From assembly GCA_964228555.1 (NCBI GenBank), contig CAXQZU010000036.1:39867-103866 (forward strand): a stretch of 64,000 nt of DNA, in the 5' to 3' direction. The position numbers and the translations under genes are program-made. This DNA comes from Planctomycetota bacterium (GTDB taxonomy: Bacteria; Planctomycetota; PLA2; JAEUHO01). Shown here piece after piece: positions 7,279 through 32,435 of this stretch. Position 1 is the stretch's first letter. The number at the start of each line of letters is the position of its first letter. The notes beneath the pieces are model-generated. The model made no database searches. It had not been told where the DNA came from and worked only from the letters and a program-made list of their open reading frames with translations.

Positions 7279-7348
7279 CCCGGCGCGCCCGCCCCGGGCA
7301 CGGGCCCCGGCCCGGTATCCTCCCGCCCTCTGGCCGGGAGGCTCCGTC

Positions 7349-11362: not shown

Positions 11363-11470
11363 GCCACGCACGGCCCGGGCGGGCGCGAGTCCCCCGCCGC
11401 CCCGCTGCGTGGTCTAATGCGGCCCCGGTCCGGGCGAGCGCCCGCCGGCCCTCCCGGAGCCCCGCGGCCC

Positions 11471-12538
<1,068 letters not shown>

Positions 12539-18682: not shown

Positions 18683-21600
18683 ATGCGCCGGATCCGCCTC
18701 GCCCTGCTGCTGCTGGCCGCCGCACTCGCCGGTAGCGTGGCGCGCGGCGAGGAGCCGGAGGTGCGTGCGCGTGCCTTCGGGCTGCGGGACACCAGCGAGG
18801 GTCGCCACGCCGTGCAGGAGGCGGCGCGCCTGCACGCCGCGGGCGAGGTGGAACGGGCGCTGCGCGTGGCCCAGTCGGGCCTGGAGCGCCATGGCGAGGA
18901 CGCCTACCTCGAGGAGCAGGCGCAGGCCTCGGAGCGCTGGCGTCCCGTCGCGCAGGTGCTGGAGGCCTGGCTGCTGGCGCTGCCGGACGCGGACCGTGCC
19001 CTCTACGATGCGCAGTGCCTGCCCGCCGTCGAGCCGCTGCTGGCCGCAGCGCGCCGCCTCGGCGACACGGCCCCGCTGGAGGAGGTGCGACGCCGGTTCC
19101 GGGCCAGCCGCCACGGGCTGGAGGCCAGCCTGCTCCTCATGGAGCGCGCTGCGGAGGCCGGCGATGCTCGCCGGGTGGCCCGCCTGGCCGAGGAGGTCGT
19201 GACGCGCGAGCCGCAGGCGGCCACCGCATGGTGGCGCTGGATGGAAGCCCTCGGCACGCTGGGCGATGGCGCGGCCCTCGAGCGGCTGGCGCCCCCGGCG
19301 GGGCTCGTGGCCCGCACGGCCCGCGGCGAGGTGGCCTTGGCCGCCCGGCTGGAAGGGCTGCGCGCCGAGTCGGCCGCCCGTGCGAGGCCGGCAGGCTGGC
19401 CCGCCTGGGGCGGCGCCTCCCACCGCACGCTGCACCCGGCCCCGGCGGGGCGCACCGTGGGCCTGCGCTGGTCGCTGGACACGACGCTGGCCCCGCGCGA
19501 GCACGACGTGCCCGGGCGCGAGATGGAAGGCGACGAGCAGGTGACCTTCGTGGCCACGCTCGCCTCCTGCTTCCCCATGTTCCCGGCCAGCGACGGTCGC
19601 GCCCTGTTCGTGGCGGACGGCCGCAGCGTGCGCGCCATCGACCTCTACGGCGGGCGCACGCTGTGGGCGCTGGAGCGCGCCCAGGCCGGCCTCCCGCTGG
19701 CCGAGGCGCGCAGCTGGTTGCGCGGGCGCAGCGCCATCGACCGGCCCTTCGCCCCCACCCTGTGGCGTGACAGCGTCATCGCCACGGTCGAGGTCCAGGT
19801 GGACTGGACCGAGGAGCGCGTGCTGGGCACGCAGACCAACTACTACATGCCGCGCCGCACGCTGGTGGCGCTGGCGCAGGACAGCGGCGCGCTGCGCTGG
19901 CGCATGGGGGCGCAGGGCCTGGACCGGGAGCGCCTGCGCAACGTGCACGTGTGCGGCGAGCCGGTGGTCGTGGACGACACCGTCGTGGCCGTGGTGTCAC
20001 GCTACGCCGGCTACGAGCAGGTGTCGGTGGTGGGCCTGGAGGCGGCCACGGGCCGCCTGCGCTGGGAGCGGCAGCTGGCCTACGGGCAGCAGGAGACCAA
20101 CCTGTTCGGCAATCCGGTCAAGGAGTTCAGCGCGGGCGCGGCCTCGGCGCGCGATGGCGTGGCCTACGCCTCCACGGGGCTGGGCTGCCTGTGCGCCGTG
20201 CGCGTGCAGGACGGGGCGCTGCTGTGGCTGGCCTCCTACGACAACATCCCCATCCAGCCGGTGCAGGCCTGGTACCAGCCGCGCATCCGCGTGCCCCTGG
20301 CGGGCCCGACGGCGCCGCTGGTGACGCCGTCGCTGGTGGTGGTGGCGCCGGGCGATGCGCGCCACGTCTCGGCCTACGAGCGCGACAGCGGCCGGCTGCG
20401 CTGGCGCGTGAGCCTCGAGGAGGGCGTGCGCGCCGGCCACGGCGCGCTGCGCCACGTGCTGGGGCTGGCACAGGTGGCCGGCCGCGAGGCCTTGATCGTC
20501 ACGGGCGCCAGCGTGCAGGCGCTGGACCTTGCCACGGGACGCCTGCTGGCCCGCGGCGGCCTCGAGGAGGAGCCCGGCACGGAGCCGCGCGCGCTCGGCC
20601 AGGGCCTCGTGCGCGGCCGCGAGGTGCTGGTGCCCACCCGCGTGGGCCTGCAGCGCTTCTCGCTGGACGGCGAGCTCAAGCTGCTGGGCGTGGACCCGTG
20701 GCCAAGGGACGCCGGCCCGGGCAACCTCGTCTCGGTGGGCAACGTGCTGGTGGTCACAGGCCGCGGGCCGGTGCAGGCGCACTACGCATGGGAAGAGGTC
20801 GAGCGAGAGCTGGCCCGCCGGCGGCGCGAGCGGCCGGACGACGCCGAGGTGCTGCTGGAGGCGGGCGACCTCTACCTGCGCGGGCGAGGGCCGGGCGAGG
20901 CGCGCGCGGCCTTCCGGGCTGCGCTGGAGGTCGCCGCCCCGGGCAGCGTGCTCGCCGACCGCGCGCGCCGTGGCCTGTTCGACGCGTGGATGGCCGAGGG
21001 CCGGCTGCGCGCGGCCGAGGAGGCCGGGCGCGGCGCGCCGGCGTGGCGCGAGGCCCTGCAGGTGGCCGTCTCGCCGGCCGAGCGTGTCGAGGCCCGGCTG
21101 GCACTGGACCAGGCGCTCGCCTCGCGCCACGAGGAGCGCATCGACAACCTCGAGCGGCTCTACGAGGAGGCGGGTGACGAGCTGACGCGCCTGGATGGCA
21201 TGGACACCGGCCTGAGCGTGCGCGTGCTGGCGCTGCTGCGCATCGCGCGCGCCGAGGAGGCCGCCCAGCGCGCGCCCCAGGCCGTCGCGGCCCTGCAGCG
21301 CCTGCTGGCGCTGCACGGGGAGGAGGTCGTCGCGGCCGAGCGCGCCAGCGCGCTGGCACGCCGGCGCATCGCGGCCCTGCTGGAGCGCTTCGGGCCCGGG
21401 GCCTACGCCGAGCAGGAAGCCCTCGCGCGCACCGAGCTCGATGCGGCGCGCAGCGCCGGCGACGTGGCCCGCCTCGAGCGCGTGCTGCTCGCCTGGCCCA
21501 ACGCCGCCGTCGTGCCGGAGGCCCGCCTGGCGCTGGGCCGGGCCCGGCTGGAGGCCGGCCAGGCGCAGGGCGCGCTGGCCCCGCTGCTGGACCTCTACGC

Positions 21601-23002
21601 GCAGGCACCCGACCGGCCCGACGGGCGCGAGGCCCTCGGCCTGGTGGCCCGGGCGCTCGAGGCGCTCGGCGCGCGCGGCGCCCTGCGGGCGGTGCGCAGC
21701 GTGCTCGCGCCGGCGGGCGCGACGCCCGCCAGCGTCCCGCCGGCGGCCGCCGAGGCGGGTGCGCTGGCCTTGCCGCTGCGCCTCGTCGAGGCGGAGCCGC
21801 GCGGCGACGAGGACGTGGTGCTGCCCCTGCCCGTGGCCAGCGAGGCTGGCGTGGCCGTGCCCCTGGCGCTCACCTCGCGCGGCGGCACGCTGCGCGCATG
21901 GAGCCTCGCCAGCGGCCGCCTGGCCTTCGAGCGGCCGGACGCACACGCTTCGCGCGCCGCCTGGTGCGAGGGCACGCTGCTGGCCTCGCTGCGCAGCAGC
22001 CTGCATGCGCTGGACCCGGCCACCGGCCAGACGCGCTGGACGCAGGACCGGCTGCGCTCGCTGCACGACATCGCCGTGGGTCCCGGGCTCGTCGTCGTGC
22101 TGGGCCAGCGCGCGGCCGATGCCGGCGGCGAGCGCGTGCTGGAGGCGTACGACGCCACCACGGGCCTGCTGCTGTGGAGCACGCCCCTGGGGCAGGAGCC
22201 CGTGTTCCAGCTGCAGCTCGGCGGGCCGCACGTGCTGCTCTCGCGGCAGGTGCAGCAGGCCGGCGCGCGGAGCACCCGCACGCTGGTCTTCGACCTGCTG
22301 TGTGGCGCCCTGCGCACCACCATCAACCCGCCGGGCCAGCTGGACCTGCGCGAGGTGCTGCTCCCGGGCCAGGTGCTCGTGGCCGGTCCTGCCCGGTCCG
22401 GCCCGGGACGCAGCGTGAGCTGCCTGCGACTGCCGGACGGCGAGCCCGCGTGGAGCACGCCCCTGGAAGACCCCGCCTACGTCACGGCGCTGCTCCCCCA
22501 CCGTGACGACGTGTGGGTGCTGCAGCACGGCGGCGCGCTCACCCGCCTCGCGCTGGCGACGGGCGAGGTGCGCTCGCGTACCAAGGTGGCCACGGGCCTG
22601 GCCCACGCGCGGCCCGCCTTCGGCACCAGCCTGCGCATGCACGGCGACCTGCTCGTGATGATGGCGCTGGGTGCCCGCGGGGCCAGCCCGCTGCTCGCCT
22701 TCGACACGGCCAGCGGCAAGCTGCGCTGGGCCGTGGAGGCCGACCCGCTCGCACAGTCCCAGCAGCACGCCCTGCTGGCCGTGGGCGACCACCTGCTCGC
22801 GCTGTGGACAGGCGAGGACGCCAACCGGGTGCGGCAGGCCCGCCTGAAGGTCGTGCGCGCCGCCGACGGCACCGTCGAGCAGGAGGTGGACCAGCTGCTG
22901 GCCGGGCCCCACGGCGTGGTGGCCGTCGCCGCCGGCCCGGGCGCCGTGCTGCTGGTGGCCGACGGCGGGGCCGCCAGCTACGGCCCGGCCAGCCCCCGCT
23001 AG
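18683..23002 (+). CDS. Secreted 1439-aa protein with TPR-like helical repeats and PQQ-like beta-propellers
   Basis: Signal peptide MRRIRLALLLLAAALAGSVARGEEP. Helical TPR-like stretches alternate with propeller-blade repeats (GRLRWERQLAY; DGALLWLASYD; GRLRWRVSLEEG; GQTRWTQDR; GLLLWSTPLG; GKLRWAVEAD). This corresponds to the TPR gene position (BatC-like) of Bat operons. Confidence 0.7.
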   Translation: MRRIRLALLLLAAALAGSVARGEEPEVRARAFGLRDTSEGRHAVQEAARLHAAGEVERALRVAQSGLERHGEDAYLEEQAQASERWRPVAQVLEAWLLALPDADRALYDAQCLPAVEPLLAAARRLGDTAPLEEVRRRFRASRHGLEASLLLMERAAEAGDARRVARLAEEVVTREPQAATAWWRWMEALGTLGDGAALERLAPPAGLVARTARGEVALAARLEGLRAESAARARPAGWPAWGGASHRTLHPAPAGRTVGLRWSLDTTLAPREHDVPGREMEGDEQVTFVATLASCFPMFPASDGRALFVADGRSVRAIDLYGGRTLWALERAQAGLPLAEARSWLRGRSAIDRPFAPTLWRDSVIATVEVQVDWTEERVLGTQTNYYMPRRTLVALAQDSGALRWRMGAQGLDRERLRNVHVCGEPVVVDDTVVAVVSRYAGYEQVSVVGLEAATGRLRWERQLAYGQQETNLFGNPVKEFSAGAASARDGVAYASTGLGCLCAVRVQDGALLWLASYDNIPIQPVQAWYQPRIRVPLAGPTAPLVTPSLVVVAPGDARHVSAYERDSGRLRWRVSLEEGVRAGHGALRHVLGLAQVAGREALIVTGASVQALDLATGRLLARGGLEEEPGTEPRALGQGLVRGREVLVPTRVGLQRFSLDGELKLLGVDPWPRDAGPGNLVSVGNVLVVTGRGPVQAHYAWEEVERELARRRRERPDDAEVLLEAGDLYLRGRGPGEARAAFRAALEVAAPGSVLADRARRGLFDAWMAEGRLRAAEEAGRGAPAWREALQVAVSPAERVEARLALDQALASRHEERIDNLERLYEEAGDELTRLDGMDTGLSVRVLALLRIARAEEAAQRAPQAVAALQRLLALHGEEVVAAERASALARRRIAALLERFGPGAYAEQEALARTELDAARSAGDVARLERVLLAWPNAAVVPEARLALGRARLEAGQAQGALAPLLDLYAQAPDRPDGREALGLVARALEALGARGALRAVRSVLAPAGATPASVPPAAAEAGALALPLRLVEAEPRGDEDVVLPLPVASEAGVAVPLALTSRGGTLRAWSLASGRLAFERPDAHASRAAWCEGTLLASLRSSLHALDPATGQTRWTQDRLRSLHDIAVGPGLVVVLGQRAADAGGERVLEAYDATTGLLLWSTPLGQEPVFQLQLGGPHVLLSRQVQQAGARSTRTLVFDLLCGALRTTINPPGQLDLREVLLPGQVLVAGPARSGPGRSVSCLRLPDGEPAWSTPLEDPAYVTALLPHRDDVWVLQHGGALTRLALATGEVRSRTKVATGLAHARPAFGTSLRMHGDLLVMMALGARGASPLLAFDTASGKLRWAVEADPLAQSQQHALLAVGDHLLALWTGEDANRVRQARLKVVRAADGTVEQEVDQLLAGPHGVVAVAAGPGAVLLVADGGAASYGPASPR

Positions 23003-23055: not shown

Positions 23056-24228
23056 ATGCGCCGGCTGGTTGCCTGCCTCCCCGTGCTGGCCGTGCTGGGG
23101 CTGCTGGCCTCGCTGGCGCGCGGCCCGGCGGGCGCCGACCAGCCGGCCCGCGGCCTCGTGACGCCGGCGGCCCGCGAGGCCATCGACAGGGGCCTCTCCT
23201 TCCTCGCCAGCCAGCAGCACACCGATGGCTCGTGGAAGAGCAACGCGGGCAAGAAGATCAACGAGGGCTACCGCATCTTCGAGGGCGGGCGCGACGTGCC
23301 GCACGTGGGCGTGACCTCGCTGGCCGTGCTGGCCTACCTCGCCGGCGGCCACGTGCCCGGGCGCGGCCCCTACGGCGAGGTCGTGGAGCGGGCCGTGCGA
23401 TTCCTCGTCGAGCAGGGGGATCCCGGCAGCGGGATGATCGCGGCCCACGGCACGCGCATGTACAGCCACGCCTTCGCCACGCTGGCCCTGGCGGAGGTGT
23501 ACGGCATGTCGCCGCAGCCTCGCGTGCGGCGCGTGCTGGAGGCCGCCGTGGACTTCACGGTGCGCTGCCAGAACGAGACCGGGGGCTGGCGCTACGTGCC
23601 CTTCACGGCCGACAGCGACATGAGCGTGACGGTGTGCCAGGTCGTGGCCCTGCGTGCGGCCCGCAACGTGGGCTTCAAGGTGCCGCAGGCCACCATCGAC
23701 CGCGCCATCGGCTACGTGCTGCGCAGCGCCTACACCGGCGCCGAGGCGCGCGGCGGCTTCCGCTACCAGCCGGAGGAGATCCGCTGGAACCGTGACTCCT
23801 TCTCGCTGGCGGCGGCCGGGCTGACGACCCTGTTCCAGGCCGGGCTCTACGACAACGCGGCCATCGCGCGCTACGTCAAGGAGCACCGCATCCCGCAGTC
23901 GCCGCCACCGCGCATCGAGGACACCGTGCGCTACCTGCGCAACCAGTTCTCCGACGTGCCCAACGACCACTTCTTCTTCTGGTACGGCTCGTACTACGCG
24001 ACGCAGGCCTTCTACCTCGTGGGCGGCAGCAACCCGCAGGAGTGGTCCGGCTGGTACACGGCCGTGCGCGACCGCATCCTGGCCACGCAGCGAGAGGCCC
24101 GCCTGCCCGGCGGCCAGCGCGGCGCCCACTGGGTCAGCAACGTGGACGACAGCCACGCCTATGCCACGGCCACCGCCCTGCTGATCCTGCAGTTCCCGCT
24201 GGACTACCTGCCCATCCACCAGCGCTGA
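23056..24228 (+). CDS. Secreted prenyltransferase/squalene-oxidase-repeat (terpene-cyclase-like alpha/alpha-toroid) protein
   Basis: Sec signal MRRLVACLPVLAVLGLLASLARG. Repeats of the QxxxGxW type (SQQHTDGSWKS; QNETGGWRY; ...GGFRYQP). No DxDD motif. Confidence 0.7.
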   Translation: MRRLVACLPVLAVLGLLASLARGPAGADQPARGLVTPAAREAIDRGLSFLASQQHTDGSWKSNAGKKINEGYRIFEGGRDVPHVGVTSLAVLAYLAGGHVPGRGPYGEVVERAVRFLVEQGDPGSGMIAAHGTRMYSHAFATLALAEVYGMSPQPRVRRVLEAAVDFTVRCQNETGGWRYVPFTADSDMSVTVCQVVALRAARNVGFKVPQATIDRAIGYVLRSAYTGAEARGGFRYQPEEIRWNRDSFSLAAAGLTTLFQAGLYDNAAIARYVKEHRIPQSPPPRIEDTVRYLRNQFSDVPNDHFFFWYGSYYATQAFYLVGGSNPQEWSGWYTAVRDRILATQREARLPGGQRGAHWVSNVDDSHAYATATALLILQFPLDYLPIHQR

Positions 24229-24256: not shown

Positions 24257-26854
24257 GTGGCGCCCGGGGGCCGCCTGCGGGCTGGCGCCCCGGTAGGCTG
24301 GACCCATGGGGCCCGCGCCGGGCCCCGCCCGAGGTGCAGCCTGGCCGCCCCGTCCCCCACGCTCGAGCTGCGCCGCAGCCTTGCCGCCCAGCGGGCCCGC
24401 ATCCGCGCCGGGCTGGCGCTGGCCGGGCTGGCGCGGGTGGCGCTGGCCGCCGTGCTGGCGCTGGGCGCCTTCTACCTCGCCGACCGGGGGCTGGACCTCC
24501 CGCTGGCGCTGCGCGCGTTCGTGCGGCTGGGTTGCCTCGGCCTGCAAGACCGCCTCCCCCTGCCGGCCTGGCTGCCGCTGGTGCTGGCCAGCGCGGTGGT
24601 GGCCTTCTACCTCGTGCGCGGCCGGCGGGCGGGCGCCCCGCTGGCGGGATTTGCCTTCGGGGGCCTTGCCGGGCTGCTGGCCGCGCTGGCGGTGCGCTGG
24701 CTGGCCCCGGTGGGCGTGCGGCTCGAGGACGCCGAGCTCGCCGCGGCCGTCGAGCAGCGGCGGCCGGGGCTCGGCGACCGGCTGGCCAGCGCGCTGGACT
24801 TCGAGGCCGAGCTGGCCCGCGAGGCCGCGGGCCAGGGACGTGGCGAGAGCCGGGCGATGATGCAGGCGCTGCTGGACGAGGCGCGGGTCACCGCGCGCGG
24901 CGCGTCGTGCGCTCAGCTGGCCAGCGGTCGCGTGCCGCTGGCGTGGCTGGGCACCCTGGCCCTGGCGCTGGGCGCGGCCGTCGTGGCCGTGGCGCTGGAC
25001 CCGGAGCAAGCCCGGCTCTTCGCCCGGCGCTCGCTGGCGCTGGAGGACCTGCCCTGGCCGCGCGCCACCACCCTGTGGGCGGTGCGGCTGGAGGCGGACG
25101 GCCGCGTGACGCGCTGGGATCCCCAGCAGCCCTTCGAGGTGGCCGTGGGCCGCACGCTCGTCGTGCACGCCGAGGCCGAGGGCGAGCCCGTGGAGGACGC
25201 CCAGCTGCTCGACCTCGCCGATGGCCAGCAGCCCCTGCCGCGGCGCATGTTCCCCGTGACCGGCCGCACCGGCATCTACGCCGTCGAGCTGGTGAACGTG
25301 CGGCAGGGCTTCGGCTTCGTGCTGCAAGGCGGCGACGACACGGACGACACGCCCGTGTACCGCGTCGAGGCCACCGTGGCCCCCGCGCTGGTGGACGTGG
25401 CCGCCGACCTCGTGTTCCCGCCCTACCTCGGCCGCGAGCCTGCGCGCGTGCTGTCCGGCAGCCTCGAGGTGCCGCAGGGCACGCAGGTGACGCTGACCCT
25501 CGTGCCCAGCGAGCCGCTGGAGTCGCTGCGCGGGGTGCTGGGCGAGGAGGCGCGCGAAGCCGAGCGCATCACGGCCGACGGCGGCGGCGAGGCCTGGCGC
25601 GTGTCGCTGGTGGCGGAGCGCAGCCTGCGCTGGCGCGCCGCGCTGCGCTCGCCGCAGGGGCGCGAGAACGACCCGGGGCAGGACGCCTACGAGATCGTGG
25701 TGCGCCCCGACGCCGCGCCCAAGGTGGCGTGGGCCTGGCCCCGTGGCGTGACGGAGGTGACGCCCGCGGGCCGCGTGCCCCTGCTGGTGGCGCTCACCGA
25801 CGACCATGCCGTGGCGTCGGCCACGCTCGAGCTGCGCGTGGGCGCCGACGGTGCCCTGCAGGCCCTGCGCCTGCAGGCCATGGAGGGCGAGGGCCCGGTG
25901 CTGCCGCGCGGCGAGCCCGGCCAGCGCACGCTGGCGGCCCTCGACGGCCCCGACGGGCGGGCGGGCGTCATGGCCTACGTGCCGCTGGAGCTGGGCTGGC
26001 TGGGCGAGGGTGCGCCGCTGCCCGTGCCGTCCACCGTGCAGGTGCGCGTGGTGGCCACCGACACCCGCGGCCAGCGAGCCGAGGGCGCCTGGCAGGTGCT
26101 GGAGGTCTATGCCCCCGCCGAGGTGGAGCGCCTGCTGTCCACGCGGCGCTCCGGCGTGCGCAGCGCCGTGGCGGCCCTCGAGTCCGAGCAGGCCGCCCGG
26201 CTCGCCCAGGTGGTGGAGCTGCAGCGCGGGGCGCTGGAGGCCGGCGACCTCGACCTGCTCAAGACCGTGCAGTTCGCGCAGTCCAAGCTGGCCCAGCACA
26301 CCGACCGCGCGGTGCGGGACTACCTCGACGTGTTCGCCAGCTTCGTGCTGGACCGGCTGGGCGCGCAGAACCCCAACGAGCGCATCCTGTCCATGATCGA
26401 CCGGGCGCACCGCGGCGTGGCCCAGCGCGGCACGGCGGCGCTGCGCGACGACGCGGCCTTCCCCTACGCCCTGTTCGAGGAGGTGGTGGCCGCCTGGCGT
26501 GGCCGCACGCTCATCGACACGGCACTGCTCGAGCGCATGCTGGCCGTGCTCGCGGCGGCGCTGGAGGCCACGCAGCGCACCGCACCCGCAGCCCAGGAGG
26601 CCGCGCAGCAGGCCGCGCAGCAGGCCGGGCCGGGAGCTGCCGCCGGGGTGCTGGCCCCGCTCGAGCAGGCCCAGCGCGCCCACCTCGCCGCCCTGCGCCA
26701 GCTGGCCGAGGCGCTCTCCTCGTGGGAGAGCCTCAACGACGTGATCGTGCGCCTCAAGCGCATCGTCGAGGAGCAGCGCGCGCTGCTCGAGCGACTCGAT
26801 GCCGAGGGGCGTGCACAGCCTGGCAGGCCTGCGCCTGCACCCGGAGCCCGTTGA
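24257..26854 (+). CDS. Hypothetical multi-TM protein with a large extracytoplasmic domain and a C-terminal helical region (865 aa)
   Basis: N-terminal TM helices (LALAGLARVALAAVLALGAFYL; WLPLVLASAVVAFYLV; FAFGGLAGLLAALAV; LAWLGTLALALGAAVVAVAL). Balanced composition with W/Y/F/Q/K, unlike spurious GC ORFs. The stop is 2 nt before the next gene's ATG. Confidence 0.65.
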   Translation: MAPGGRLRAGAPVGWTHGARAGPRPRCSLAAPSPTLELRRSLAAQRARIRAGLALAGLARVALAAVLALGAFYLADRGLDLPLALRAFVRLGCLGLQDRLPLPAWLPLVLASAVVAFYLVRGRRAGAPLAGFAFGGLAGLLAALAVRWLAPVGVRLEDAELAAAVEQRRPGLGDRLASALDFEAELAREAAGQGRGESRAMMQALLDEARVTARGASCAQLASGRVPLAWLGTLALALGAAVVAVALDPEQARLFARRSLALEDLPWPRATTLWAVRLEADGRVTRWDPQQPFEVAVGRTLVVHAEAEGEPVEDAQLLDLADGQQPLPRRMFPVTGRTGIYAVELVNVRQGFGFVLQGGDDTDDTPVYRVEATVAPALVDVAADLVFPPYLGREPARVLSGSLEVPQGTQVTLTLVPSEPLESLRGVLGEEAREAERITADGGGEAWRVSLVAERSLRWRAALRSPQGRENDPGQDAYEIVVRPDAAPKVAWAWPRGVTEVTPAGRVPLLVALTDDHAVASATLELRVGADGALQALRLQAMEGEGPVLPRGEPGQRTLAALDGPDGRAGVMAYVPLELGWLGEGAPLPVPSTVQVRVVATDTRGQRAEGAWQVLEVYAPAEVERLLSTRRSGVRSAVAALESEQAARLAQVVELQRGALEAGDLDLLKTVQFAQSKLAQHTDRAVRDYLDVFASFVLDRLGAQNPNERILSMIDRAHRGVAQRGTAALRDDAAFPYALFEEVVAAWRGRTLIDTALLERMLAVLAAALEATQRTAPAAQEAAQQAAQQAGPGAAAGVLAPLEQAQRAHLAALRQLAEALSSWESLNDVIVRLKRIVEEQRALLERLDAEGRAQPGRPAPAPGAR

Positions 26855-26856
26855 CC

Positions 26857-29800
26857 ATGCCCTCCCGAACCCAGCCCGATGCCTCCCGCCCGGCCAAGGC
26901 GCCGCGCGTGCTCCTCGCCACGCTGGCGCTGGTGGCTGCGCTGGCGCCGTGGGCCCCGGCCGCGCGCGCCGAGGACGCCGACCGCGAGGCCCGCGTGCAG
27001 GCCCGGCGTCGCGAGCAGGAGGCGATCCGCGAGAAGACCGAGGCGCTCACGGCCAGCATGCGCTCCCTGCGCGAGTCGCTGGAGCGGGAGGGCAGCGCCT
27101 ACGAGGTGGAGATCCTCTCCCGGGCGCTGCAGCACCTCGAGGGCGCCAACCTCGCGGCCGGCATCCAGGCCGCCCTGCAGGCGCTGGAGGGCACGCGCGA
27201 CGTGTCGCAGGTGGCGCGCGAGCAGGTCTCGCGCGTGCTGGCCGACCTCGAGGGCCTGCTCGAGATCCTCGAGGACCGCAAGCGCGAGGTGACGCGCGAC
27301 CAGATCGAGCAGCGGCTGGAGGCGGCCAAGGAGGCGCTGGAGGCCACGCAGCAGCTGCGCCGCGAGCAGGAGCAGGTGGCGCGCGCCATCGAGCAGGCCC
27401 AGCAGCAGGCACGCACCGAGGCGGCCCGGCAGGCCGAGGCACTGTCACGCGAAGCGGCCGCCCTGCGCGCGGAGCAGCAGCGCCTGCGTGAGGAGGCTGC
27501 GCGCGACGCCGGCGAGCAGGCGCGCGCCGAGCGTGCCATGGCAGAGAACCTGCTGGCGCGCCAGCGGGAAGCGCTGGAGCGCCTGCGGGCCGCACGCCGT
27601 GCCGAGGGCGAGCAGGCGCGCGCCGCGGCGCAGGAGGCCCGGCGCCTCGCGGAGGAGGAGCGCGCTGCGGCGGCTCAGGCCAGCGGCGACGGGGTGCGCG
27701 AGGCCCTGCGGCAGGCCGTGGGCGACGCCGCGGCACAGGCCGCGCGCGCAGCCGCCGCGGCGCGCACGCAGGCGGCCGCCGAGGCTGCGGTGGAGGCGGC
27801 CCGCGAGGCCGGCCGCGCCGCGCAAGCGCAGGCGCGGGCCGCGGGGGGTGGCGCCGATGCGGCACAGGCGGCCGACGAGGCGCGCGAGGCCGGCGAGCGA
27901 GCGCGCAGCGCCGCCACGCGCGCACAGCGGATGGCCCGCGAGGCCGCCGGGGCGAAGGGGGCCGAGCGCGCCACGGCAGAGGCCGCCCAGCGCCTCGCCG
28001 AGCAGGCCGGGCCGCTGGCGGCGGGTGAGGCAGGCGCCGCCAGCCCGCAGCGCCGCGAGGCGCTGGAGCAGGCGGCCGCAGCCGCCGCGCAGGCCTCGGC
28101 GGCTGCGGCCCAGCAGGCCGAGTCCGCCGCCGCCGCAGCGCGGGCGGCCGCGCAGGCACTGGAATCGCTGGAGCGGGCCGGGATGGCCGAAGGGGGCGCT
28201 CAGGCTGGCGCCTCCGCCGAGGCCGGGCGGCAGGCTGCGCAGCGTGCCCGTGCGGCCCTCGAAGAGGGCGCGGGCCAGCTGGAGCAGGCGGCCCGCGACA
28301 TGCAGCCCGGCACGGCGGCTGGCGCCCGCCCTGCCGGGGCGGACCGCGCAGAGGCCGGCCGGGAGCGGCTGGAGGCGGCCGCGGAGGCGCTGGGCGCCGC
28401 GGTGGCTGCCGGGTCCTCCTCCACGCCGCAGGACCGGGCGCAGCAGGCGGCCGCGGAACGCCAGCGTGCGCAGGCCGCCCAAGGGCTGGCCCGCCAGGCC
28501 GCGCAGGCGGCGCAGGCGGTGGGCGAGGCAGGCAGCGGCGAGCGCGCCGCGGCTGAGCAGGCGGCTCGCGAGGCCAGTGCGCAGGCCGAGGCGGCCGCGC
28601 GCGCCATGGAGCAGGCGGCCTCGGCCCTGGCCGGGGGCCGGCCGGGCGAGGCGGCGGGCCAGCAGGCCGAGGCCGCCGAGCACCTCGACCGCGCCGCCCG
28701 CATGCTGGGCGGCGAGGCAGGTGCGTCCGGGCTGGCCGAGGAGCAGGGCATGCTCGCGCGCGGTGCGGAGTCGCTGGCCCAGCGGCTCGAGCAGCAGGCG
28801 GGCGGCCAGGCCGGCACCGCACAGCCCGGCGCGCAGGCTGCCGAGGCTGCGCGCCAGCAGGCAGCCGGGGCGGCCCGCGAGGCCGCGCGCCACCTGGAGC
28901 AGGCCCAGCAGGCACTCCAGCAGGGTCGTGGCGGCGAGGCGGCTGCCGCCGAGGAGCAGGCCGTGCAAGCCCTGGAGCAGGCCCGCGAGGGCCTGGCCGC
29001 GCGCGAGCGCGACCTGGCCGCCGCACGCGAGCAGCGCGAGCAGGCGCTGGCCGAGGCCCAGCGCCGGCTGGTGGCCAAGGCCAAGGAACTGGAAGAGCGC
29101 GCCCGGCAGCTCGCGCCCTCCTCGCCCGAGGCGCAGCAGCAGGCCGAGCGCGCACGCGAGGCGCTGCAGCAGGCCGCGCGCGCCATGGAGCAGGCGGCGC
29201 AGCAGGCCTCCGGGGGCCAGTCCCAGCAGGCCGCCGGCTCGCAGCAGCAGGCCGAGCAGTCCCTGTCCGAGGCCCAGCGCCAGCTGCAGCAGGGCGCCCG
29301 CGAGACCGAGCGCACGCCTGCACTCGAGCAGCAGCTCAAGGAGCTGTCCGAGCGGCAGGAGCGCCTGCGCGAGCGCATGAAGCAGCTGGAAGACCTGCTG
29401 GCCAAGACCGAGAACGAGGCAGCGCAGGAGGCCGGGCGGCGTGCGCGGCGCGCGATGGAGGCCACCGAGGACAGCCTCGAGCAGGGCCAGGCCCAGCGCA
29501 GCCGCCAGCAGGCCGAGGAGGCGCGCGAGTACCTCGAGCAGGCCGAGCAGGCCCTCGACGAGGAGCGCCGGCGCTACCAGAGCCTGGAGCAGGAAGAGAT
29601 GCTGTTCCAGCTGGTGAAGGACCTGAAGGCCGCGCGCGAGGCCCAGGCCGCGCTGCGCAAGGAGAGCGAGGAGGTCGTGGCCGAGGCGCAGCGCCTGCGC
29701 GACGAGGGTGGCCGGCTCTCGCGTGCGCGCCGCAAGCGCACGAAGGAGATGGCCGCCGAGGAGCAGGCGCTGGCCGGCACGCTCGACGAGCGCCGGCAGG

Positions 29801-30273
29801 CCGTCGAGAAGGAAGACTCGGCGGCCTTCGCCGCCAGCCTCGCCGAGGCGGTGGAGGACGTGCGCGAGGCCGCGCGCCAGCTCGAGCAGCCCGACGAGCT
29901 CGGCCCGCTGCTGCTGGCCGTTCAAGACGCCGTGCTGCAGCGCCTCGACGACCTCGTGGGCGGCTTCGAGGACGAGCTGGAGCGCCGCCAGCAGGAGGAC
30001 CCCCAGCAGCAACAGCGCGATCGCCAGCAGGAGCAGCAGCCGCAGCAGGAGCGCCTCGTGCCCTTCGAGGTGGAGCTCAAGCTGCTGCGCCGCCAGCAGG
30101 TGGACCTCAACCTGCGCGTGCAGCGCTTCTTCGAGCGCACGCCCGGCCTCTCCGAGGGCCGGGTGGGCGAGGCCGAGCGGCGCATGCTCGAGCGCCTCTA
30201 CCACCAGCAGGGCCGCATCAAGCGCGTGCTGGAGGACCTGGTCGAGAAGACGCTGGGAGGGCAGGGCGGATAG
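26857..30273 (+). CDS. Secreted 1138-aa Ala/Glu/Gln/Arg-rich coiled-coil protein
   Basis: Signal peptide MPSRTQPDASRPAKAPRVLLATLALVAALAPWAPAARAEDA, followed by about 1100 aa of heptad-like, charged, A/E/Q/R-dominated sequence (for example EQARAAAQEARRLAEEERAAAAQ) and ending in a less biased C-terminal about 120 aa (LVPFEVELKLLRRQQVDLNLRVQRFFERTPGL...). It is in frame with, and directly follows, the upstream membrane-protein gene. Confidence 0.7.
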   Translation: MPSRTQPDASRPAKAPRVLLATLALVAALAPWAPAARAEDADREARVQARRREQEAIREKTEALTASMRSLRESLEREGSAYEVEILSRALQHLEGANLAAGIQAALQALEGTRDVSQVAREQVSRVLADLEGLLEILEDRKREVTRDQIEQRLEAAKEALEATQQLRREQEQVARAIEQAQQQARTEAARQAEALSREAAALRAEQQRLREEAARDAGEQARAERAMAENLLARQREALERLRAARRAEGEQARAAAQEARRLAEEERAAAAQASGDGVREALRQAVGDAAAQAARAAAAARTQAAAEAAVEAAREAGRAAQAQARAAGGGADAAQAADEAREAGERARSAATRAQRMAREAAGAKGAERATAEAAQRLAEQAGPLAAGEAGAASPQRREALEQAAAAAAQASAAAAQQAESAAAAARAAAQALESLERAGMAEGGAQAGASAEAGRQAAQRARAALEEGAGQLEQAARDMQPGTAAGARPAGADRAEAGRERLEAAAEALGAAVAAGSSSTPQDRAQQAAAERQRAQAAQGLARQAAQAAQAVGEAGSGERAAAEQAAREASAQAEAAARAMEQAASALAGGRPGEAAGQQAEAAEHLDRAARMLGGEAGASGLAEEQGMLARGAESLAQRLEQQAGGQAGTAQPGAQAAEAARQQAAGAAREAARHLEQAQQALQQGRGGEAAAAEEQAVQALEQAREGLAARERDLAAAREQREQALAEAQRRLVAKAKELEERARQLAPSSPEAQQQAERAREALQQAARAMEQAAQQASGGQSQQAAGSQQQAEQSLSEAQRQLQQGARETERTPALEQQLKELSERQERLRERMKQLEDLLAKTENEAAQEAGRRARRAMEATEDSLEQGQAQRSRQQAEEAREYLEQAEQALDEERRRYQSLEQEEMLFQLVKDLKAAREAQAALRKESEEVVAEAQRLRDEGGRLSRARRKRTKEMAAEEQALAGTLDERRQAVEKEDSAAFAASLAEAVEDVREAARQLEQPDELGPLLLAVQDAVLQRLDDLVGGFEDELERRQQEDPQQQQRDRQQEQQPQQERLVPFEVELKLLRRQQVDLNLRVQRFFERTPGLSEGRVGEAERRMLERLYHQQGRIKRVLEDLVEKTLGGQGG

Positions 30274-30336: not shown

Positions 30337-31179
30337 ATGCGCCTCTACCCGCTCGCCCTCACCCTCCTCGCGCTGCTGCTGCCCGCCGTGCCCCTGCGCG
30401 CCGAGGAGCCGGGCGACCTCGAGCGCAAGCTCAAGGAGCAGATGGAGAAGGTGCTGCGCCTGATGCGCGAGAACGAGGAGGCACTCCTGCGTGCCAGCCA
30501 GCAGGGAGGCGCGGCTCCCAAGGGTCCCGACATCCCCATCCCCCCCCTGCCGCCGGCCCCCGGCGGGCAGGGCGGGCCTGGTGGCGCGCCGCAGGGCGGC
30601 GGGTCGCAGGGTGGCGGGGCGCAGGGTGGCGGCCAGGCAGGAAGCGGCGCAGGCACGTCGGGCGAGGGCGCCCGGGTGGCCCTCGAGGAGATCCTCAAGG
30701 TGCTGCGCGAGGGTGGCGGCGCCATCCCCGGCGAGATCGAGAGCCTGATGCGCATGCTGCCGGAGCAAGAAGGCGGCGGCGGCGGCGGGCAGGGCTCCTC
30801 CTCGCGCAAGCCGGGCTCGCGAGGTGGCCCGCAGACGCCCGAGGCCCGCGAGGCGCAGCGCCAGCGCGAGCTGGAGGAGCAGGCTCGCAAGCAGCACGAG
30901 GAGCAGCAGCGGCAGGCGGGCGGCACGCCCCCGCAGGGCCCCAAGCCCCCGCAGGACCCCGCGGGCCAGGCCGCGCGCGACGGACAGCCCCCGCCCAAGG
31001 AAAGCGACCCGAAGGTGGACCCGTGGTTCGCCTCGCTGCCGCCCGAGATCCGGGAGTTCTGGGCAGGCGGCGGCCTGGAGCGGCTGCCGGCGCGGGTGCG
31101 CAAGATCCTCGAGGACTACCAGCGCAGCCTCGATGCCGAGACGCGCCGCGCGGGCACGACGGGCCCCGCCGCCCGCTAG
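30337..31179 (+). CDS. Secreted low-complexity Gly/Gln/Pro/Glu-rich protein (280 aa)
   Basis: Signal peptide MRLYPLALTLLALLLPAVPLRAEEP. Contains K/E/M/W/F residues that spurious GC ORFs rarely carry. GGQGGPGGAPQGGGSQGGG tract. C-terminal DPWFASLPPEIREFWAGGGLERLP. Confidence 0.55.
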   Translation: MRLYPLALTLLALLLPAVPLRAEEPGDLERKLKEQMEKVLRLMRENEEALLRASQQGGAAPKGPDIPIPPLPPAPGGQGGPGGAPQGGGSQGGGAQGGGQAGSGAGTSGEGARVALEEILKVLREGGGAIPGEIESLMRMLPEQEGGGGGGQGSSSRKPGSRGGPQTPEAREAQRQRELEEQARKQHEEQQRQAGGTPPQGPKPPQDPAGQAARDGQPPPKESDPKVDPWFASLPPEIREFWAGGGLERLPARVRKILEDYQRSLDAETRRAGTTGPAAR

Positions 31180-31286: not shown

Positions 31287-32435
31287 ATGGCCTCGCTCCC
31301 GCCCACCCGCCGCGACGTGCTGGGTGCCCGGCCCAGCGCGCTGGCGCTGGCCGCGCTGGCCCTGACGTCGTGGGCAGGCAGCGAGGAGCGGGCCCGCGCC
31401 AGCACAGCCGAGGACCCGGCACGCCGCGAGCGGCGCCGCCGGGCCATCGAGCGTGGCGCGTCCTGGCTGGCGGTCCAGCAGCGCACGGGCGGAGGCTTCG
31501 GCGACGACAAGGCCGTCGTGGCGCTCACCGCGCTGTCGGTGATGGCCCTGCAAGCGTCAGGCAGCGCCTACGGACGGGGCCCCCACGGCCTCGCCGTCAA
31601 GCGCGGCATCGACTTCCTGCTGCAGCTGGTGGAGACGCCCTCGACCGTGCAGTGGCACCCCGAGGGCTACTTCCACCATCCCGGCGACACCGACTCGCGC
31701 ATGCACGGGCAAGGCTATGCCGCACTCGCCCTGGCCACGGCACTGGGCATGGCGCCCGGTCCGCGCGCCGAGCGCTTGCGCAGCGCCGTGGCCAAGGCGG
31801 TGCGCTGCATGGAGGCGGCGCAGACCAGCACGGGCGGCTACGGCTACAGCCCCTCGCCGGACAACGACCACGAGGGCAGCGTCACCGTGTGCGTGGCGCA
31901 GGCCTTGCGCGCCGCGCGCGACGCCGGCCTCACGGTCAGCCAAGGCGTCGTGCTGCGCGGCCTCGAGTACCTGCGCAAGAGCCAGGTGGCCTCGGACGGG
32001 GCCTCCGACGGCGGCTTCACGTACAGCATCACGCACACCAAGCACACCTACGCGCTGACGGCCGCGGCCATCTCGTCCTTCTACCTGTTCGGGCGCTACA
32101 AGGACGACCCGCGCCGCACGCTGGACCGCGGCATGCGCTACATGCTGCGCGCCCTCGAGCGCGGTGCCGTGGACGAGGAGTGGTGGTACTACGGCCACTT
32201 CTATGGCGCCTGGGCCTTCTGGCAGCGCGACGGCGGCGACTGGTCCAGCGCCTCGATGTGGGGCCGCTGGGCTGCGCTGGTGCTGCCCGAGCTGGTCGGA
32301 GAGCGCCAGCGCAGCGACGGGTCGTGGGACGACCGCGCGAGCGGCAAGTTCCACTACGGGCCGGTGCTGAGCACGGCCTTCGCGGTGCTCACCCTGTCCA
32401 TCCCCGACGAGGCGCTGCCGGTGTTCCAGCGCTGA
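31287..32435 (+). CDS. Tat-secreted prenyltransferase/squalene-oxidase-repeat (alpha/alpha-toroid) protein
   Basis: Twin-arginine signal MASLPPTRRDVLGARPSALALAALALTSWAGS. Repeats QQRTGGGFG, QTSTGGYGYSP and ...DGGFTYS. Paralogous in architecture to 23056..24228. No DxDD. Confidence 0.7.
   Translation: MASLPPTRRDVLGARPSALALAALALTSWAGSEERARASTAEDPARRERRRRAIERGASWLAVQQRTGGGFGDDKAVVALTALSVMALQASGSAYGRGPHGLAVKRGIDFLLQLVETPSTVQWHPEGYFHHPGDTDSRMHGQGYAALALATALGMAPGPRAERLRSAVAKAVRCMEAAQTSTGGYGYSPSPDNDHEGSVTVCVAQALRAARDAGLTVSQGVVLRGLEYLRKSQVASDGASDGGFTYSITHTKHTYALTAAAISSFYLFGRYKDDPRRTLDRGMRYMLRALERGAVDEEWWYYGHFYGAWAFWQRDGGDWSSASMWGRWAALVLPELVGERQRSDGSWDDRASGKFHYGPVLSTAFAVLTLSIPDEALPVFQR

Follow-up and report, generated by a model that had tools for sequence, protein, structure and literature searches.

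A predicted exported helical protein of Planctomycetota encoded in a Bat-like operon and its probable place in a split DUF4175-like envelope unit

Proteins of the TIGR02302 type consist of N-terminal transmembrane helices followed by a long extracytoplasmic region that contains low-complexity sequence rich in Gln and Gly. TolA (domain II) and Lpp bridge periplasmic distance with helical segments, exported or anchored and rich in Ala and charged residues, that take the form of single long helices or of a trimeric coiled coil. In MoxR-vWA pairs such as RavA-ViaA, NorQ-NorD and CbbQ-CbbO the vWA proteins recruit their substrates via contacts between the MIDAS and acidic residues. A TIGR02302 gene of Rhodobacter is listed among the genes tied to the CenR envelope/division regulator (PMC9275681), and deletion of TIGR02302 in Azorhizobium leads, according to Sato et al. 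2016 as cited in PMC6842974, to exopolysaccharide overproduction. The AdvA protein of Acinetobacter baumannii, which carries a DUF4175 annotation next to two transmembrane helices, is credited in the available text of PMC7481262 with an envelope/division phenotype, and the physiological role of the Bat-like operons is called unresolved in the available text of PMC3557215 and PMC5700661.

The gene considered here (the target gene) lies in a window of 64,000 nucleotides, the whole stretch of DNA that was analysed, within a cluster whose order is β-propeller, MoxR, DUF58, BatA, vWA, β-propeller, toroid, anchor, target, p280, toroid:

9056..11362, + strand: 768-aa secreted protein whose gene opens the cluster (BamB/PQQ-propeller-like, but with weak matches only; NCBIfam E 1.2e-4, well short of the cut-off)
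11417..12538, + strand: MoxR-type AAA+ ATPase with AAA_3 and AAA_lid_2 (AAA_3 E 1.8e-64)
12504..13430, + strand: DUF58 / vWA-like protein (DUF58 E 1.4e-46)
13434..15830, + strand: BatA-type protein with N-terminal double-transmembrane and vWA domain (BatA E 2e-14; TIGR02226 E 5.3e-20)
15827..18604, + strand: second membrane-anchored vWA / GATase1-like protein (weak VWA, VWA_CoxE and GATase1_like matches)
18683..23002, + strand: giant secreted PQQ_2 β-propeller protein, about 1439 aa (PQQ_2 E 5.4e-26; signal peptide MRRIRLALLLLAAALAG)
23056..24228, + strand: secreted α/α-toroid protein (prenyltransferase / squalene-cyclase-like), 390 aa (signal peptide; weak Prenyltrans and SQHop_cyclase matches)
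24257..26854, + strand: anchor gene ("UP", up to 865 aa), 99% identical to MFM8387280.1 / ACKOCB_10770
26857..30273, + strand: target gene, 1138-codon frame from the ATG at 26857; its product is a predicted exported all-α protein
30337..31179, + strand: p280, 280 aa, exact match to MFM8387282.1 / ACKOCB_10780
31287..32435, + strand: second α/α-toroid protein, 382 aa, with a twin-arginine-like N-terminus (PTRRDVLG)

The anchor, target and p280 genes occupy the distal end of a MoxR-DUF58-BatA-vWA ("Bat-like") operon, in which the ATG of the second vWA gene overlaps the BatA stop by 4 nt; no terminator-like site was found on the + strand between 24000 and 33000. Most of the products have a signal peptide or a membrane anchor; in MoxR and DUF58 neither a signal peptide nor a convincing membrane segment is seen, and both are therefore presumably cytoplasmic. 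A toroid gene of the 23056..24228 type lies directly upstream of the anchor gene in nearly all loci, and the second toroid gene is conserved downstream in many of them. The p280 protein has a signal peptide, Gly/Gln/Pro-rich low complexity and a conserved C-terminal motif (W..LP......LP.R.R..L.DY), with homologues in loci L007-L009, L029, L041, L072 and L087. Neither this operon nor the link to DUF4175 had been mentioned in the original prediction made for this DNA.

The frame 26857..30273 is a genuine coding gene. The flanking genes match ACKOCB_10770 (upstream) and ACKOCB_10780 (downstream) of a Planctomycetia MAG and, judging from these two tags, the gene itself is probably ACKOCB_10775. 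Its GC content at the three codon positions is 0.89/0.53/0.93, the frame plot agreeing with the + frame, and its differences from the 1137-aa orthologue of locus L002 are distributed over the same positions as 152/136/356; of the changed codons, 246 are synonymous and 222 non-synonymous. Non-synonymous codons amount to 6–9% in the terminal modules (6–20% along the N-module) and ~30–36% in the middle of the protein. Codon usage and periodicity had been proposed as a means of recognizing a frame opened by GC bias, and both the GC3 of 0.93 and the dominance of third-position substitutions indicate coding. A mere open frame in DNA of 76–78% GC might have been suspected, the window being rich in long spurious ORFs, such as the out-of-frame 24334..26856, and an antisense ORF of 919 aa (27445..30204) having a GC3 of 0.91. 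However, substitutions pile up at the third position of the sense codons, where the codon-aligned antisense frame has its first, purifying selection acts strongly on the terminal modules, the signal peptide is conserved, as is the start/stop overlap, and homologues are present in loci ranging from 57% to 78% GC; these comparative data refute the non-coding reading, to which we attribute virtually no probability. On the other hand, the target and the upstream gene, which had been placed in the same frame, are in different ones (24257 mod 3 = 2, 26857 mod 3 = 1). The 1979-aa ORF (24334..30273) owes its existence solely to the lack of stops in frame 1 along the upstream gene, in DNA of this GC content; the ~840 codons at its start encode R/A/G/P junk, and it represents an out-of-frame, GC-bias read-through of that gene.

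Within the target gene the following parts can be distinguished:

26857..26970, + strand: Sec-type signal peptide, residues 1–38 (hydrophobic segment; presumed cleavage after A-R-A)
26971..27636, + strand: conserved helical N-module, residues ~39–260, about 220 aa (low non-synonymous change, orthologue alignment)
27637..29106, + strand: variable Ala-rich low-complexity helical middle, residues ~261–750 (indels, composition, pLDDT 45–75)
29107..30270, + strand: conserved family-defining C-module, residues ~751–1138, about 380 aa (identity to P0004, alignment A2, pLDDT)
30055..30150, + strand: C-terminal motif LVPFEVELKLLRRQQVDLNLRVQRFFERTPGL, residues 1067–1098, quoted in the original prediction

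The N-terminus, MPSRTQPDASRPAKAPRVLLATLALVAALAPWAPAARA followed by ED after the cleavage site, has the basic n-region, the hydrophobic stretch (residues 15–36) and the A-x-A site of the classical signal peptide that had been foreseen, as recognized by eye and from hydropathy. A hydrophobic N-terminal segment occurs in 84 of the 92 full-length family members and the called starts in the genome loci are all signal-peptide-like; the pLDDT of residues 1–40 is below 50. From these sequence features, the product would be exported by the Sec pathway. Ala, Glu, Gln and Arg account for 65.8% of the 1138 residues (A 302, E 160, R 145, Q 142), where more than 50% had been claimed, and both strings singled out at the time can be located, EQARAAAQEARRLAEEERAAAAQ beginning at residue 252 and the other being the motif of residues 1067–1098. 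The C-terminal module had been described as short; the conserved C-terminal part measures ~380 aa and is accompanied by the conserved N-module of ~220 aa. The C-module is 32% identical to P0004 over 379 aa (E 6e-25) and has a pLDDT of about 85–95; its motif is conserved family-wide as RLVPDxAELKLLxRxEVD and recurs at the C-terminus of P0029, in which anchor and target are fused.

In keeping with the multi-transmembrane protein predicted, the anchor has N-terminal hydrophobic helices; they are followed by tandem Ig-like β-sandwiches (residues ~271–617) and a C-terminal helical bundle (~620–851), with an AlphaFold pLDDT of 79.5 and Foldseek matches to tandem Ig/FnIII arrays (E 2e-8). Hydropathy gives four strongly hydrophobic segments in the source clade vs three in P0029, P0030 and the L087 homologue; with four segments and the basic N-terminus inside, the Ig-like domains would be cytoplasmic, so that, in view of this count, we only infer that the C-terminal part of the anchor is extracytoplasmic. 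The junction with the target gene reads as follows:

26843..26856, + strand: gene junction, with GGAG at 26843–26846, the anchor TGA stop at 26852–26854 and a 2-nt spacer before the ATG

The ATG at 26857 indeed lies 2 nt past the upstream stop, and the arrangement GGAGCCCGyTGAsCATG is shared with L002–L004; L005 lacks the GGAG and retains the 2-nt spacer. Among 63 junctions from across the phylum, the two genes overlap by 4 nt in 39 and are 1 nt apart in nine, 48 of the 63 falling between −4 and +1 nt, and the co-occurrence with the membrane gene that had been called for is found throughout, an anchor homologue lying immediately upstream in 68/68 planctomycete loci having upstream DNA. The functional tie to the membrane protein is supported by this synteny, by the tight junctions and by P0029 (1203 aa), a natural fusion of an anchor-like region (29% identity over 556 aa, E 2e-20) with a C-module (hmmsearch E 1.6e-8; hhalign 92% probability over 289 columns). 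The P0029 gene comes directly after MoxR-DUF58-BatA-VWA on its contig, where a PQQ_2 protein occupies the matching position before MoxR.

The target product had been depicted as a secreted coiled-coil protein. Export, as predicted, and an almost entirely helical nature are what stands of this picture: the AlphaFold model (pTM 0.44) is all α, with 984 of 1138 residues (86%) helical. These are distributed, however, over about 30 helices of median length 30 aa with loops between them, the longest of 86 aa and others of 71, 59 and 51 aa, and the sequence contains 76 Gly and 22 Pro, all of which is at variance with an almost uninterrupted helix. Furthermore, neither the protein as a whole nor its N-module, middle or C-module taken singly has excess power at period 3.5 (z −0.9 to 1.0), and the best Foldseek matches, none of them significant (E 4e-3 to 5), are α-catenin, vinculin, talin and spectrin. 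The ~30 short helices and the absent heptad periodicity therefore indicate serial hairpins or bundles and not one 150-nm coiled coil, even if the pLDDT of the middle (45–75, with several segments below 50) leaves the overall shape uncertain.

The fibre of ~150 nm originally proposed, i.e., one near-continuous dimeric or trimeric coiled coil that works as a ruler or tether in the periplasm or at the surface, anchored to the upstream membrane protein, thus appears unlikely. The helices of the model are parted by Gly/Pro-containing breaks, the recurring unit is a helix-Gly-helix hairpin, the large hydrophobics of the middle (8%) are too scarce to occupy the a and d positions of a core, serial helical-bundle proteins are what the weak fold matches point to, and 984 helical residues × 0.15 nm give 148 nm only without any fold-back; this must be weighed against the helical content and the few long helices, the charged, Ala-rich composition, the real and tight coupling to the anchor gene, a family length of 723 to 1433 aa, as possible for a ruler co-varying with envelope dimensions, and the fact that an intermolecular coiled coil cannot show in a monomer AlphaFold run.

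The middle is made of 39% Ala, 10% Gly and 8% large hydrophobics, arranged in degenerate helix-Gly-helix hairpin repeats, and it evolves fast, with indels among five aligned sequences that include a P/G/S/T-rich insert in L005. Such a composition, like the low pLDDT, would also suit a protein in which only the terminal modules fold, the remainder being a largely disordered or transiently helical linker, an entropic spacer or a gel-like periplasmic filler; moreover, the Ala and Arg contents follow genomic GC (rho 0.59 and 0.71), which suggests weak constraint on residue identity, and the adjoining p280 is likewise mostly Gly/Gln/Pro low complexity. We deem this rather unlikely, since AlphaFold predicts helices across the whole middle, the region is retained in most full-length members, the indels in the five-sequence alignment keep the frame, and hairpin repeats kin to the well-conserved C-module hairpin are detectable (E 7e-5 to 3e-4; hhalign places one at 665–714 with E 3e-4, that near 543–586 being non-significant at E 0.04).

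Pfam and NCBIfam searches with the target gave zero matches even at E ≤ 10, and none to DUF4175 or TIGR02302; an initial homologue search returned 13 homologues. Such components had been considered rare, a view contradicted by the C-module profile, which retrieved 3096 cluster representatives at E ≤ 1e-3 (1962 at ≤ 1e-10 and 278 at ≤ 1e-30), mostly of 850–1100 aa with the module C-terminal, and 127 species-level genome matches in genome contigs. Of these 127, the best 80 almost all bear the label Planctomycetota (for a few it is just "bacterium") and include MAGs labelled Planctomycetia, Phycisphaerales/Phycisphaeraceae and Brocadiaceae. In P0002/P0003 a target homologue is fused to p280, the p280 C-terminal motif following the C-module (E 3e-5); the helix/low-complexity resemblance of these proteins to p280 was judged by eye.

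A short relative, P0195, matches the C-module (E 1.7e-16 database-wide) and passes the Pfam DUF4175 gathering score (44.5 vs 27.3 bits, profile positions 507–752 of 825). P0190 also lies above this score, and P0004, P0008 and P0011 have sub-threshold matches at positions ~507–760. The link of the target to DUF4175 is transitive and limited to the helical-hairpin region, where compositional similarity can inflate scores. Between the anchor and the N-terminal portion of the DUF4175 profile no resemblance was detected. In L087 the P0195 gene comes after BatA-like, VWA-like and anchor-like genes, and a p280-like gene comes after it. The target family is conserved throughout Planctomycetota, where it probably makes up one part of a DUF4175-like envelope protein that is split, the unit being distributed over three tightly coupled consecutive genes: anchor (24257..26854), target and p280 (30337..31179). 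The best reading is that the target is probably the planctomycete counterpart of the helical, C-terminal portion of envelope proteins of the DUF4175 type, and we consider it fairly probable that it is a periplasmic structural subunit of the split unit in a Bat-like envelope system. The N-module would dock non-covalently on the extracytoplasmic helical bundle of the anchor, replacing the peptide bond of the fused homologues; the middle would be a semi-flexible helical spacer of lineage-dependent length; and the C-module might keep p280, and perhaps the secreted propeller/toroid proteins, away from the inner membrane, the assembled whole constituting a periplasmic scaffold of the Bat-like complex.

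That the target is instead a ligand or client, its Glu side chains (14% of the residues) being bound by the MIDAS of BatA/vWA and the protein being assembled, remodelled or turned over by the MoxR-vWA machinery, would accord with an operon shared with two vWA membrane proteins and a MoxR ATPase, and with the MIDAS-acidic recruitment established for MoxR-vWA pairs. By analogy only, and quite improbably, would this apply here: MoxR and DUF58 are presumably cytoplasmic, whereas the target is predicted to be exported, and the fusions tie it to the anchor and p280, not to the vWA proteins.

The structural-subunit reading can be set beside the known systems. With α-catenin, vinculin, talin and spectrin the target has in common many ~30-aa helices packed in successive bundles, but these are eukaryotic cytoskeletal proteins, neither sequence nor significant structural homology was detected and, with a TM-score of at most 0.12 of the query, the analogy is one of shape only. 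Like TolA and Lpp, to which PDB sequence searches found no homology, the target is Ala-/charge-rich, helical and (as predicted) exported, but it is segmented into hairpins. The likeness with AdvA concerns the DUF4175 annotation next to two transmembrane helices and the envelope/division phenotype, no MoxR operon being reported for AdvA in the available text of PMC7481262. The Bat (Bacteroides aerotolerance) operons of Bacteroidota, Spirochaetota and others share the one-strand core of MoxR AAA_3, DUF58 and BatA-type double-transmembrane vWA; unlike them, the present operon contains two PQQ_2 propellers, two α/α-toroids and the anchor-target-p280 trio, and among the genes scanned there was no match to BatD nor, apart from a faint TPR_16 on one L087 gene, to TPR (BatC/BatE-type) proteins. 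With DUF4175 (PF13779) / TIGR02302, finally, are shared the long helical low-complexity region, with its hairpins of the type A..AM..A...L..G....A...Q..A...L, and the placement after MoxR-DUF58-BatA-vWA genes. Unlike these proteins, the target itself has no match to either profile and bears a cleavable signal peptide (as predicted) in place of transmembrane helices, and the planctomycete unit is split over three genes; yet the TIGR02302 layout corresponds to that of anchor, target and p280 combined.

The reading frame at positions 26857..30273 (plus strand), whose product of 1138 amino acids is helical and of low complexity, is a real gene. Because the GC content of the window lies between 71 and 80% (2-kb windows; 78–79% over this target gene), long open frames are cheap, and 49 ORFs of at least 100 amino acids are found between 20 and 36 kb. 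That the frame is coding and not merely held open by GC bias is indicated by its codon-position composition (GC1/2/3 = 0.89/0.53/0.93), by a sliding frame plot in which the upstream gene's high-GC3 phase gives way at ~26.9 kb to the target's, and by codon-by-codon comparison with the 1137-aa orthologue encoded at locus L002, in which the substitutions are dominated by the third position (152/136/356 differences at codon positions 1/2/3). The latter comparison yielded 246 synonymous and 222 non-synonymous codon changes, the non-synonymous ones amounting to ~3–9% in residues 101–200 and 801–1138 and to 29–36% in residues 301–600.

The original prediction placed the target in the same frame as the membrane-protein gene preceding it (24257..26854, plus strand; henceforth the anchor), within a single ORF of 1979 amino acids. 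This is incorrect, for the target is read in phase 1 and the upstream gene in phase 2. What appears as one ORF of 1979 amino acids consists of the target plus ~840 codons (24334..26856, plus strand) of out-of-frame, stop-free read-through of the anchor gene, which translate to Arg/Ala/Gly/Pro-rich junk, and is a GC-bias artefact merging with the true gene. A further long frame faces the target:

27445..30204, minus strand: antisense ORF, 919 aa, GC3 0.91, Leu/Gly/Ala/Arg-rich, codon-aligned with the target

This ORF was rejected as a true gene, for coding on that strand is contradicted by the substitution pattern, under which most changes would fall on the first position of the antisense codons; the ORF is hence a shadow thrown by the target's GCN/GAG/CAG/CGN codons. 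Likewise rejected was a 91-nt tRNA-Ala (anticodon GGC) called by ARAGORN at 27094..27184 (minus strand), which lies within the coding sequence of the conserved N-terminal module and lacks Rfam support, the whole window being free of RNA families at the Rfam gathering thresholds; in DNA this rich in GC the call is most probably spurious. The 1979-aa ORF, the antisense ORF and the intragenic tRNA call, artefacts all three, are a caution for the reading of very-high-GC DNA. Between 28001 and 30000 the AT skew (0.37) and the GC skew (0.09) are the highest of the window, the coding strand being purine-rich there because of its GAG, CAG and GCN codons.

The N-terminus of the product (MPSRTQPDASRPAKAPRVLLATLALVAALAPWAPAARA followed by ED) contains a hydrophobic, signal-peptide-like segment at residues 15–36. 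By inspection and hydropathy it presents the basic n-region, hydrophobic h-region and A-x-A site of a Sec/SPase I signal, and neither a lipobox Cys nor a twin-arginine motif, so that the export signal originally proposed is borne out; a hydrophobic N-terminal signal-like feature is kept in 84 of 92 family members. Alignment with the orthologues of loci L002, L004, L005 and L001 and with 13 distant homologues divides the target protein as follows.

Parts of the target protein
Residues 1–38: signal peptide
Residues ~39–260: N-module, conserved
Residues ~261–750: Ala-rich middle, fast-evolving, with indels
Residues ~751–1138: C-module, conserved, holding the C-terminal motif quoted in the original prediction

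In the middle, Ala accounts for 39% of the residues, Gly for 10% and large hydrophobics for only 8%, and the L005 orthologue has a Pro/Gly/Ser/Thr-rich insert there. The C-module is 32% identical to the homologous protein P0004 over 379 residues (E 6e-25). Both peptides originally quoted are found in the target, and the composition bias is confirmed, Ala, Glu, Gln and Arg making up 65.8% of the protein. This bias is a family trait (mean 52%, range 42–65%) and within the family the contents of Ala and Arg correlate positively with genomic GC (rho 0.59 and 0.71, respectively) and that of Lys negatively (rho -0.69); the 66% of the target is the family bias amplified by a GC content of 76–78%.

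An AlphaFold model built from a 14-sequence alignment (mean pLDDT 74, pTM 0.44) is all-alpha according to DSSP, with 984 helical residues in 30 helices of median length 30 aa, the longest having 86 aa, and with pLDDT values of ~85–95 in the C-module vs 45–75 in the middle; helices running for hundreds of residues without breaks do not occur in it. Heptads were sought as the period-3.5 Fourier signal against 500 shuffles, a crude test in that register shifts would weaken the signal, and gave z values of 1.0 for the N-module, -0.9 for the middle, 0.0 for the C-module and 0.0 for the whole protein. The proposed single coiled-coil fibre of ~150 nm, a length obtained by multiplying the 984 residues by 0.15 nm and assuming zero fold-back, is not upheld by these 30 short helices and this lack of 3.5-residue periodicity: a canonical long coiled-coil fibre has sustained heptads and unbroken long helices, neither of which is seen in the target or its model. 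The initial observation was largely right, its frame claim and its continuous-fibre picture being the parts that were wrong.

A profile of the hairpin at residues 848–905 (pattern A..AM..A...L..G....A...Q..A...L) detects, in self-comparison, weaker copies at ~761–812 (E 7e-5) and 665–714 (E 3e-4) and a non-significant match near 543–586 (E 0.04); a strict regular expression for the motif finds a single copy in the target. Foldseek comparison of the model with the PDB gave nothing at E≤1e-3, the top weak matches being the serial helical-bundle rods alpha-catenin, vinculin, talin and spectrin, and PDB sequence searches returned only noise (polyQ, FlhA, CobT, E≥0.02). What the model depicts is a chain of predicted hairpins or bundles of helices whose middle part is ill-defined.

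The full-length homology search of the target recovered at least 13 distant homologues; its list of 8000 candidates was swamped by low-complexity words, so that the close orthologues escaped it and were retrieved via the neighbouring anchor gene. An exhaustive search with an HMM of the C-module found 3096 cluster representatives at E≤1e-3, 1962 at E≤1e-10 and 278 at E≤1e-30, the typical match being a protein of 850–1100 aa with the module at its C-terminus; further extensions are seen in P0107 (850 aa, module at 274–592) and P0171 (1293 aa). Relatives are encoded in 127 stretches (contigs from one genome per species), the best 80 of which are all from MAGs and nearly all labelled Planctomycetota, with Planctomycetia, Phycisphaerales/Phycisphaeraceae and Brocadiaceae among the labels. 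In a Planctomycetia MAG, MFM8387280.1 (ACKOCB_10770) is 99% identical to the anchor product and ACKOCB_10780 is identical to p280, the 280-aa product of the gene downstream of the target; the target should therefore be ACKOCB_10775, and the annotation of all three neighbours is "hypothetical protein". No match to the target was found in Pfam (E up to 10) or NCBIfam (E up to 0.1), and in the literature on DUF4175, TIGR02302, Bat and planctomycete MoxR clusters a study of its family was not found.

The target lies in the following cluster, in which toroid stands for an alpha/alpha-toroid (prenyltransferase/squalene-cyclase-like) protein and propeller for a PQQ_2/BamB-like beta-propeller protein.

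Genes of the cluster, in order
9056..11362, plus strand: secreted 768-aa protein with weak BamB/PQQ-propeller-like matches
Second in order, plus strand: MoxR (AAA_3, E 1.8e-64)
Directly after MoxR, plus strand: DUF58 protein (E 1.4e-46)
After DUF58, plus strand: BatA/TIGR02226 vWA protein (BatA 2e-14, TIGR02226 5.3e-20)
After BatA, plus strand: second membrane-anchored vWA/GATase1-like protein
18683..23002, plus strand: secreted PQQ_2 propeller protein of ~1439 aa with clear PQQ_2 matches
23056..24228, plus strand: secreted toroid protein, immediately before the anchor
24257..26854, 26857..30273 and 30337..31179, plus strand: anchor, target and p280 (the trio), consecutive
31287..32435, plus strand: second toroid protein, with a twin-arginine-like N-terminus (PTRRDVLG), after p280

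These genes form a co-directional cluster of MoxR AAA_3, DUF58, BatA double-TM and vWA type, in which the vWA matches of both membrane proteins are sub-threshold and VWA_2 is matched by the DUF58 protein only (40.5 bits). No terminator-like site was found on the plus strand between 24 and 33 kb. Equivalent MoxR-DUF58-BatA-vWA clusters surround the homologues and, in nearly all of the 80 best genome loci, propeller, toroid, anchor and target follow one another in this order. Other junctions of the cluster are tight as well: the end of moxR and the longest DUF58 ORF share 35 nt (12504..12538), so that the true DUF58 start is probably further downstream, and the ATG of the second vWA gene overlaps the BatA stop by 4 nt (15827..15830). 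The two toroids flank the trio, both being conserved in many planctomycete loci, and the PTRRDVLG N-terminus suggests that the second one is exported through the Tat pathway in folded form and possibly with a cofactor. Two large secreted proteins (9056..11362 and 18683..23002) bracket the MoxR-DUF58-BatA-vWA core; MoxR was first tied to the activation of methanol dehydrogenase, a PQQ-dependent propeller enzyme.

An anchor homologue lies directly upstream of the target relative in 68 of 68 loci with upstream DNA (80 loci surveyed, 12 ending at a contig edge). The 2-nt spacing after the upstream stop is likewise confirmed; the GGAG...TGA-2 nt-ATG junction is conserved in L002–L004, L005 retaining the spacing only, and among the 63 junctions with a callable start 39 have a 4-nt start/stop overlap and 9 a 1-nt gap. 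Because the junctions are so tight and conserved, anchor and target are, with good support, probably coupled in translation. The anchor model (AlphaFold, pLDDT 79.5) comprises N-terminal hydrophobic helices and a small helical domain, tandem beta-sandwiches at residues 271–617 that Foldseek matches to tandem Ig/FnIII arrays (E 2e-8), and a helical bundle at residues 620–851. An extracytoplasmic location of the Ig-like domains is indicated indirectly, by a fused homologue, by the Ig-like folds and by the signal peptide of the partner. Hydropathy gives four strongly hydrophobic segments in the anchor of this clade (residues 51–247) vs three in the distant homologues P0029, P0030 and the L087 gene; the extra segment at ~102–120 would turn the predicted topology around if it did not pair with the weak helix 83–92. 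The true start codon of the anchor is uncertain, its orthologues spanning 803–866 aa.

Natural fusions tell which pieces belong together. P0029 (1203 aa), whose gene is preceded on its contig by PQQ, MoxR, DUF58, BatA and VWA genes, is 29% identical to the TM and Ig-like part of the anchor over 556 aa (E 2e-20), and its tail matches the C-module profile near end to end (hmmsearch E 1.6e-8; hhalign 92% probability, 289 columns). P0002 and P0003 (~1210 aa; metagenomic proteins, like P0029), on the other side, join a target homologue to a p280 homologue, their C-module being followed by a helix, a Gly/Gln/Pro-rich stretch and the C-terminal motif of p280 (E 3e-5). The genes of the trio thus act as one unit that is fused differently elsewhere.

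The same C-module leads to DUF4175. Its profile A2 matches P0195 (514 aa) at an E of 1.7e-16 for a database of 5.8 billion sequences, and P0195 in turn passes Pfam DUF4175 (PF13779) with 44.5 bits (E 7.8e-12, profile positions 507–752 of 825); P0190 also passes the gathering threshold (28.5 bits vs 27.3), and sub-threshold scores were obtained for P0193 (24.4 bits), P0011 (24.1), P0004 (18.4) and P0008 (17.3), the last three covering the same profile region as P0195. At locus L087 the P0195 gene follows BatA-like, VWA-like and anchor-like genes (anchor profile E 1.8e-47) and precedes a p280-like gene. The target itself gave no match to PF13779 (threshold 27.3 bits) even at E≤10, TIGR02302 was matched at E≤0.1 by none of target, anchor, P0195, P0190, P0029 and P0004, and tblastn of P0195 against plasmids had no match. 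The homology of the helical region to DUF4175 is thus transitive (A2 to P0195 to PF13779), and the target, as judged from these profiles, is a distant relative of the DUF4175 helical part, not a member by the curated threshold. The compact L087 system (6859..8403 and neighbours) encodes BatA-like, VWA-like, anchor-like (712 aa), DUF4175-positive (514 aa) and p280-like proteins, the latter of 353 aa with a faint TPR match, propeller and toroid genes being absent between them; this layout suggests an older core into which the propeller and toroid genes were inserted in particular lineages.

The target accordingly belongs to a phylum-wide family with signal-peptide-like N-termini and segmented helices, located within a mostly exported MoxR-DUF58-BatA-vWA cluster. 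In the most likely reading, the N-module would dock onto the helical bundle of the anchor, the middle would be a length-variable spacer and the C-module would hold p280 and possibly other periplasmic partners, the parts together providing a putative scaffold of a Bat-like envelope complex. A more far-reaching reading is that the trio, the secreted propellers and toroids and the MoxR/vWA module constitute a Planctomycetota-wide periplasmic skeleton. In it, helical rods of variable length, whose assembly would require the MoxR ATPase, would stand out from the cytoplasmic membrane and contribute to establishing or preserving two planctomycete features, the membrane invaginations and the periplasm with its unusual width and compartment-like character. 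Such a skeleton, which we consider quite improbable, would fit the conservation across the phylum, the export signals and the variation in length. The main value of the present analysis is a subunit map (anchor, helical rod, Gly/Gln-rich tail), drawn from synteny and fusions, of an uncharacterised envelope system present in at least 127 species-level genomes, those listed being nearly all labelled Planctomycetota.

Bat-like MoxR-vWA operons and DUF4175/TIGR02302 proteins are widespread. MoxR-vWA-beta-propeller ternary conflict systems have been described by Kaur et al. 2020 (PMC7159879). In such systems a best match to bpMoxR and defence components are expected, whereas neither was found in the cluster: its MoxR scores 45.9 bits with bpMoxR vs 216 bits with AAA_3, and its propeller proteins carry signal peptides. 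This assignment was dropped, PADLOC having matched no defence-system model to 8 cluster proteins. The Bat operon of Bacteroides differs in encoding BatC/BatD/BatE-type (TPR, BatD) proteins; BatD had no match among the window genes from 11417 to 32435 (9056–11362 by NCBIfam only) or in the precomputed Pfam lists of related loci. For the wider family, published reports point towards the envelope: PMC9275681 names a Rhodobacter TIGR02302 gene among those tied to the CenR envelope/division regulator, and an Azorhizobium TIGR02302 mutant is cited in PMC6842974 as overproducing exopolysaccharide. PMC3557215 and PMC5700661 describe the role of the Bat proteins as still unresolved. DUF4175 proteins, finally, combine N-terminal TM helices and a helical low-complexity region in one polypeptide, a fused form present in P0029, whereas the target is without TM helices and a separate upstream gene supplies them. 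In Planctomycetota the DUF4175-like unit is thus divided over three genes, probably coupled, within a cluster of ~12 genes whose products are mostly exported, and the target is an uncharacterised yet common part of a known operon type in the split architecture typical of this phylum.
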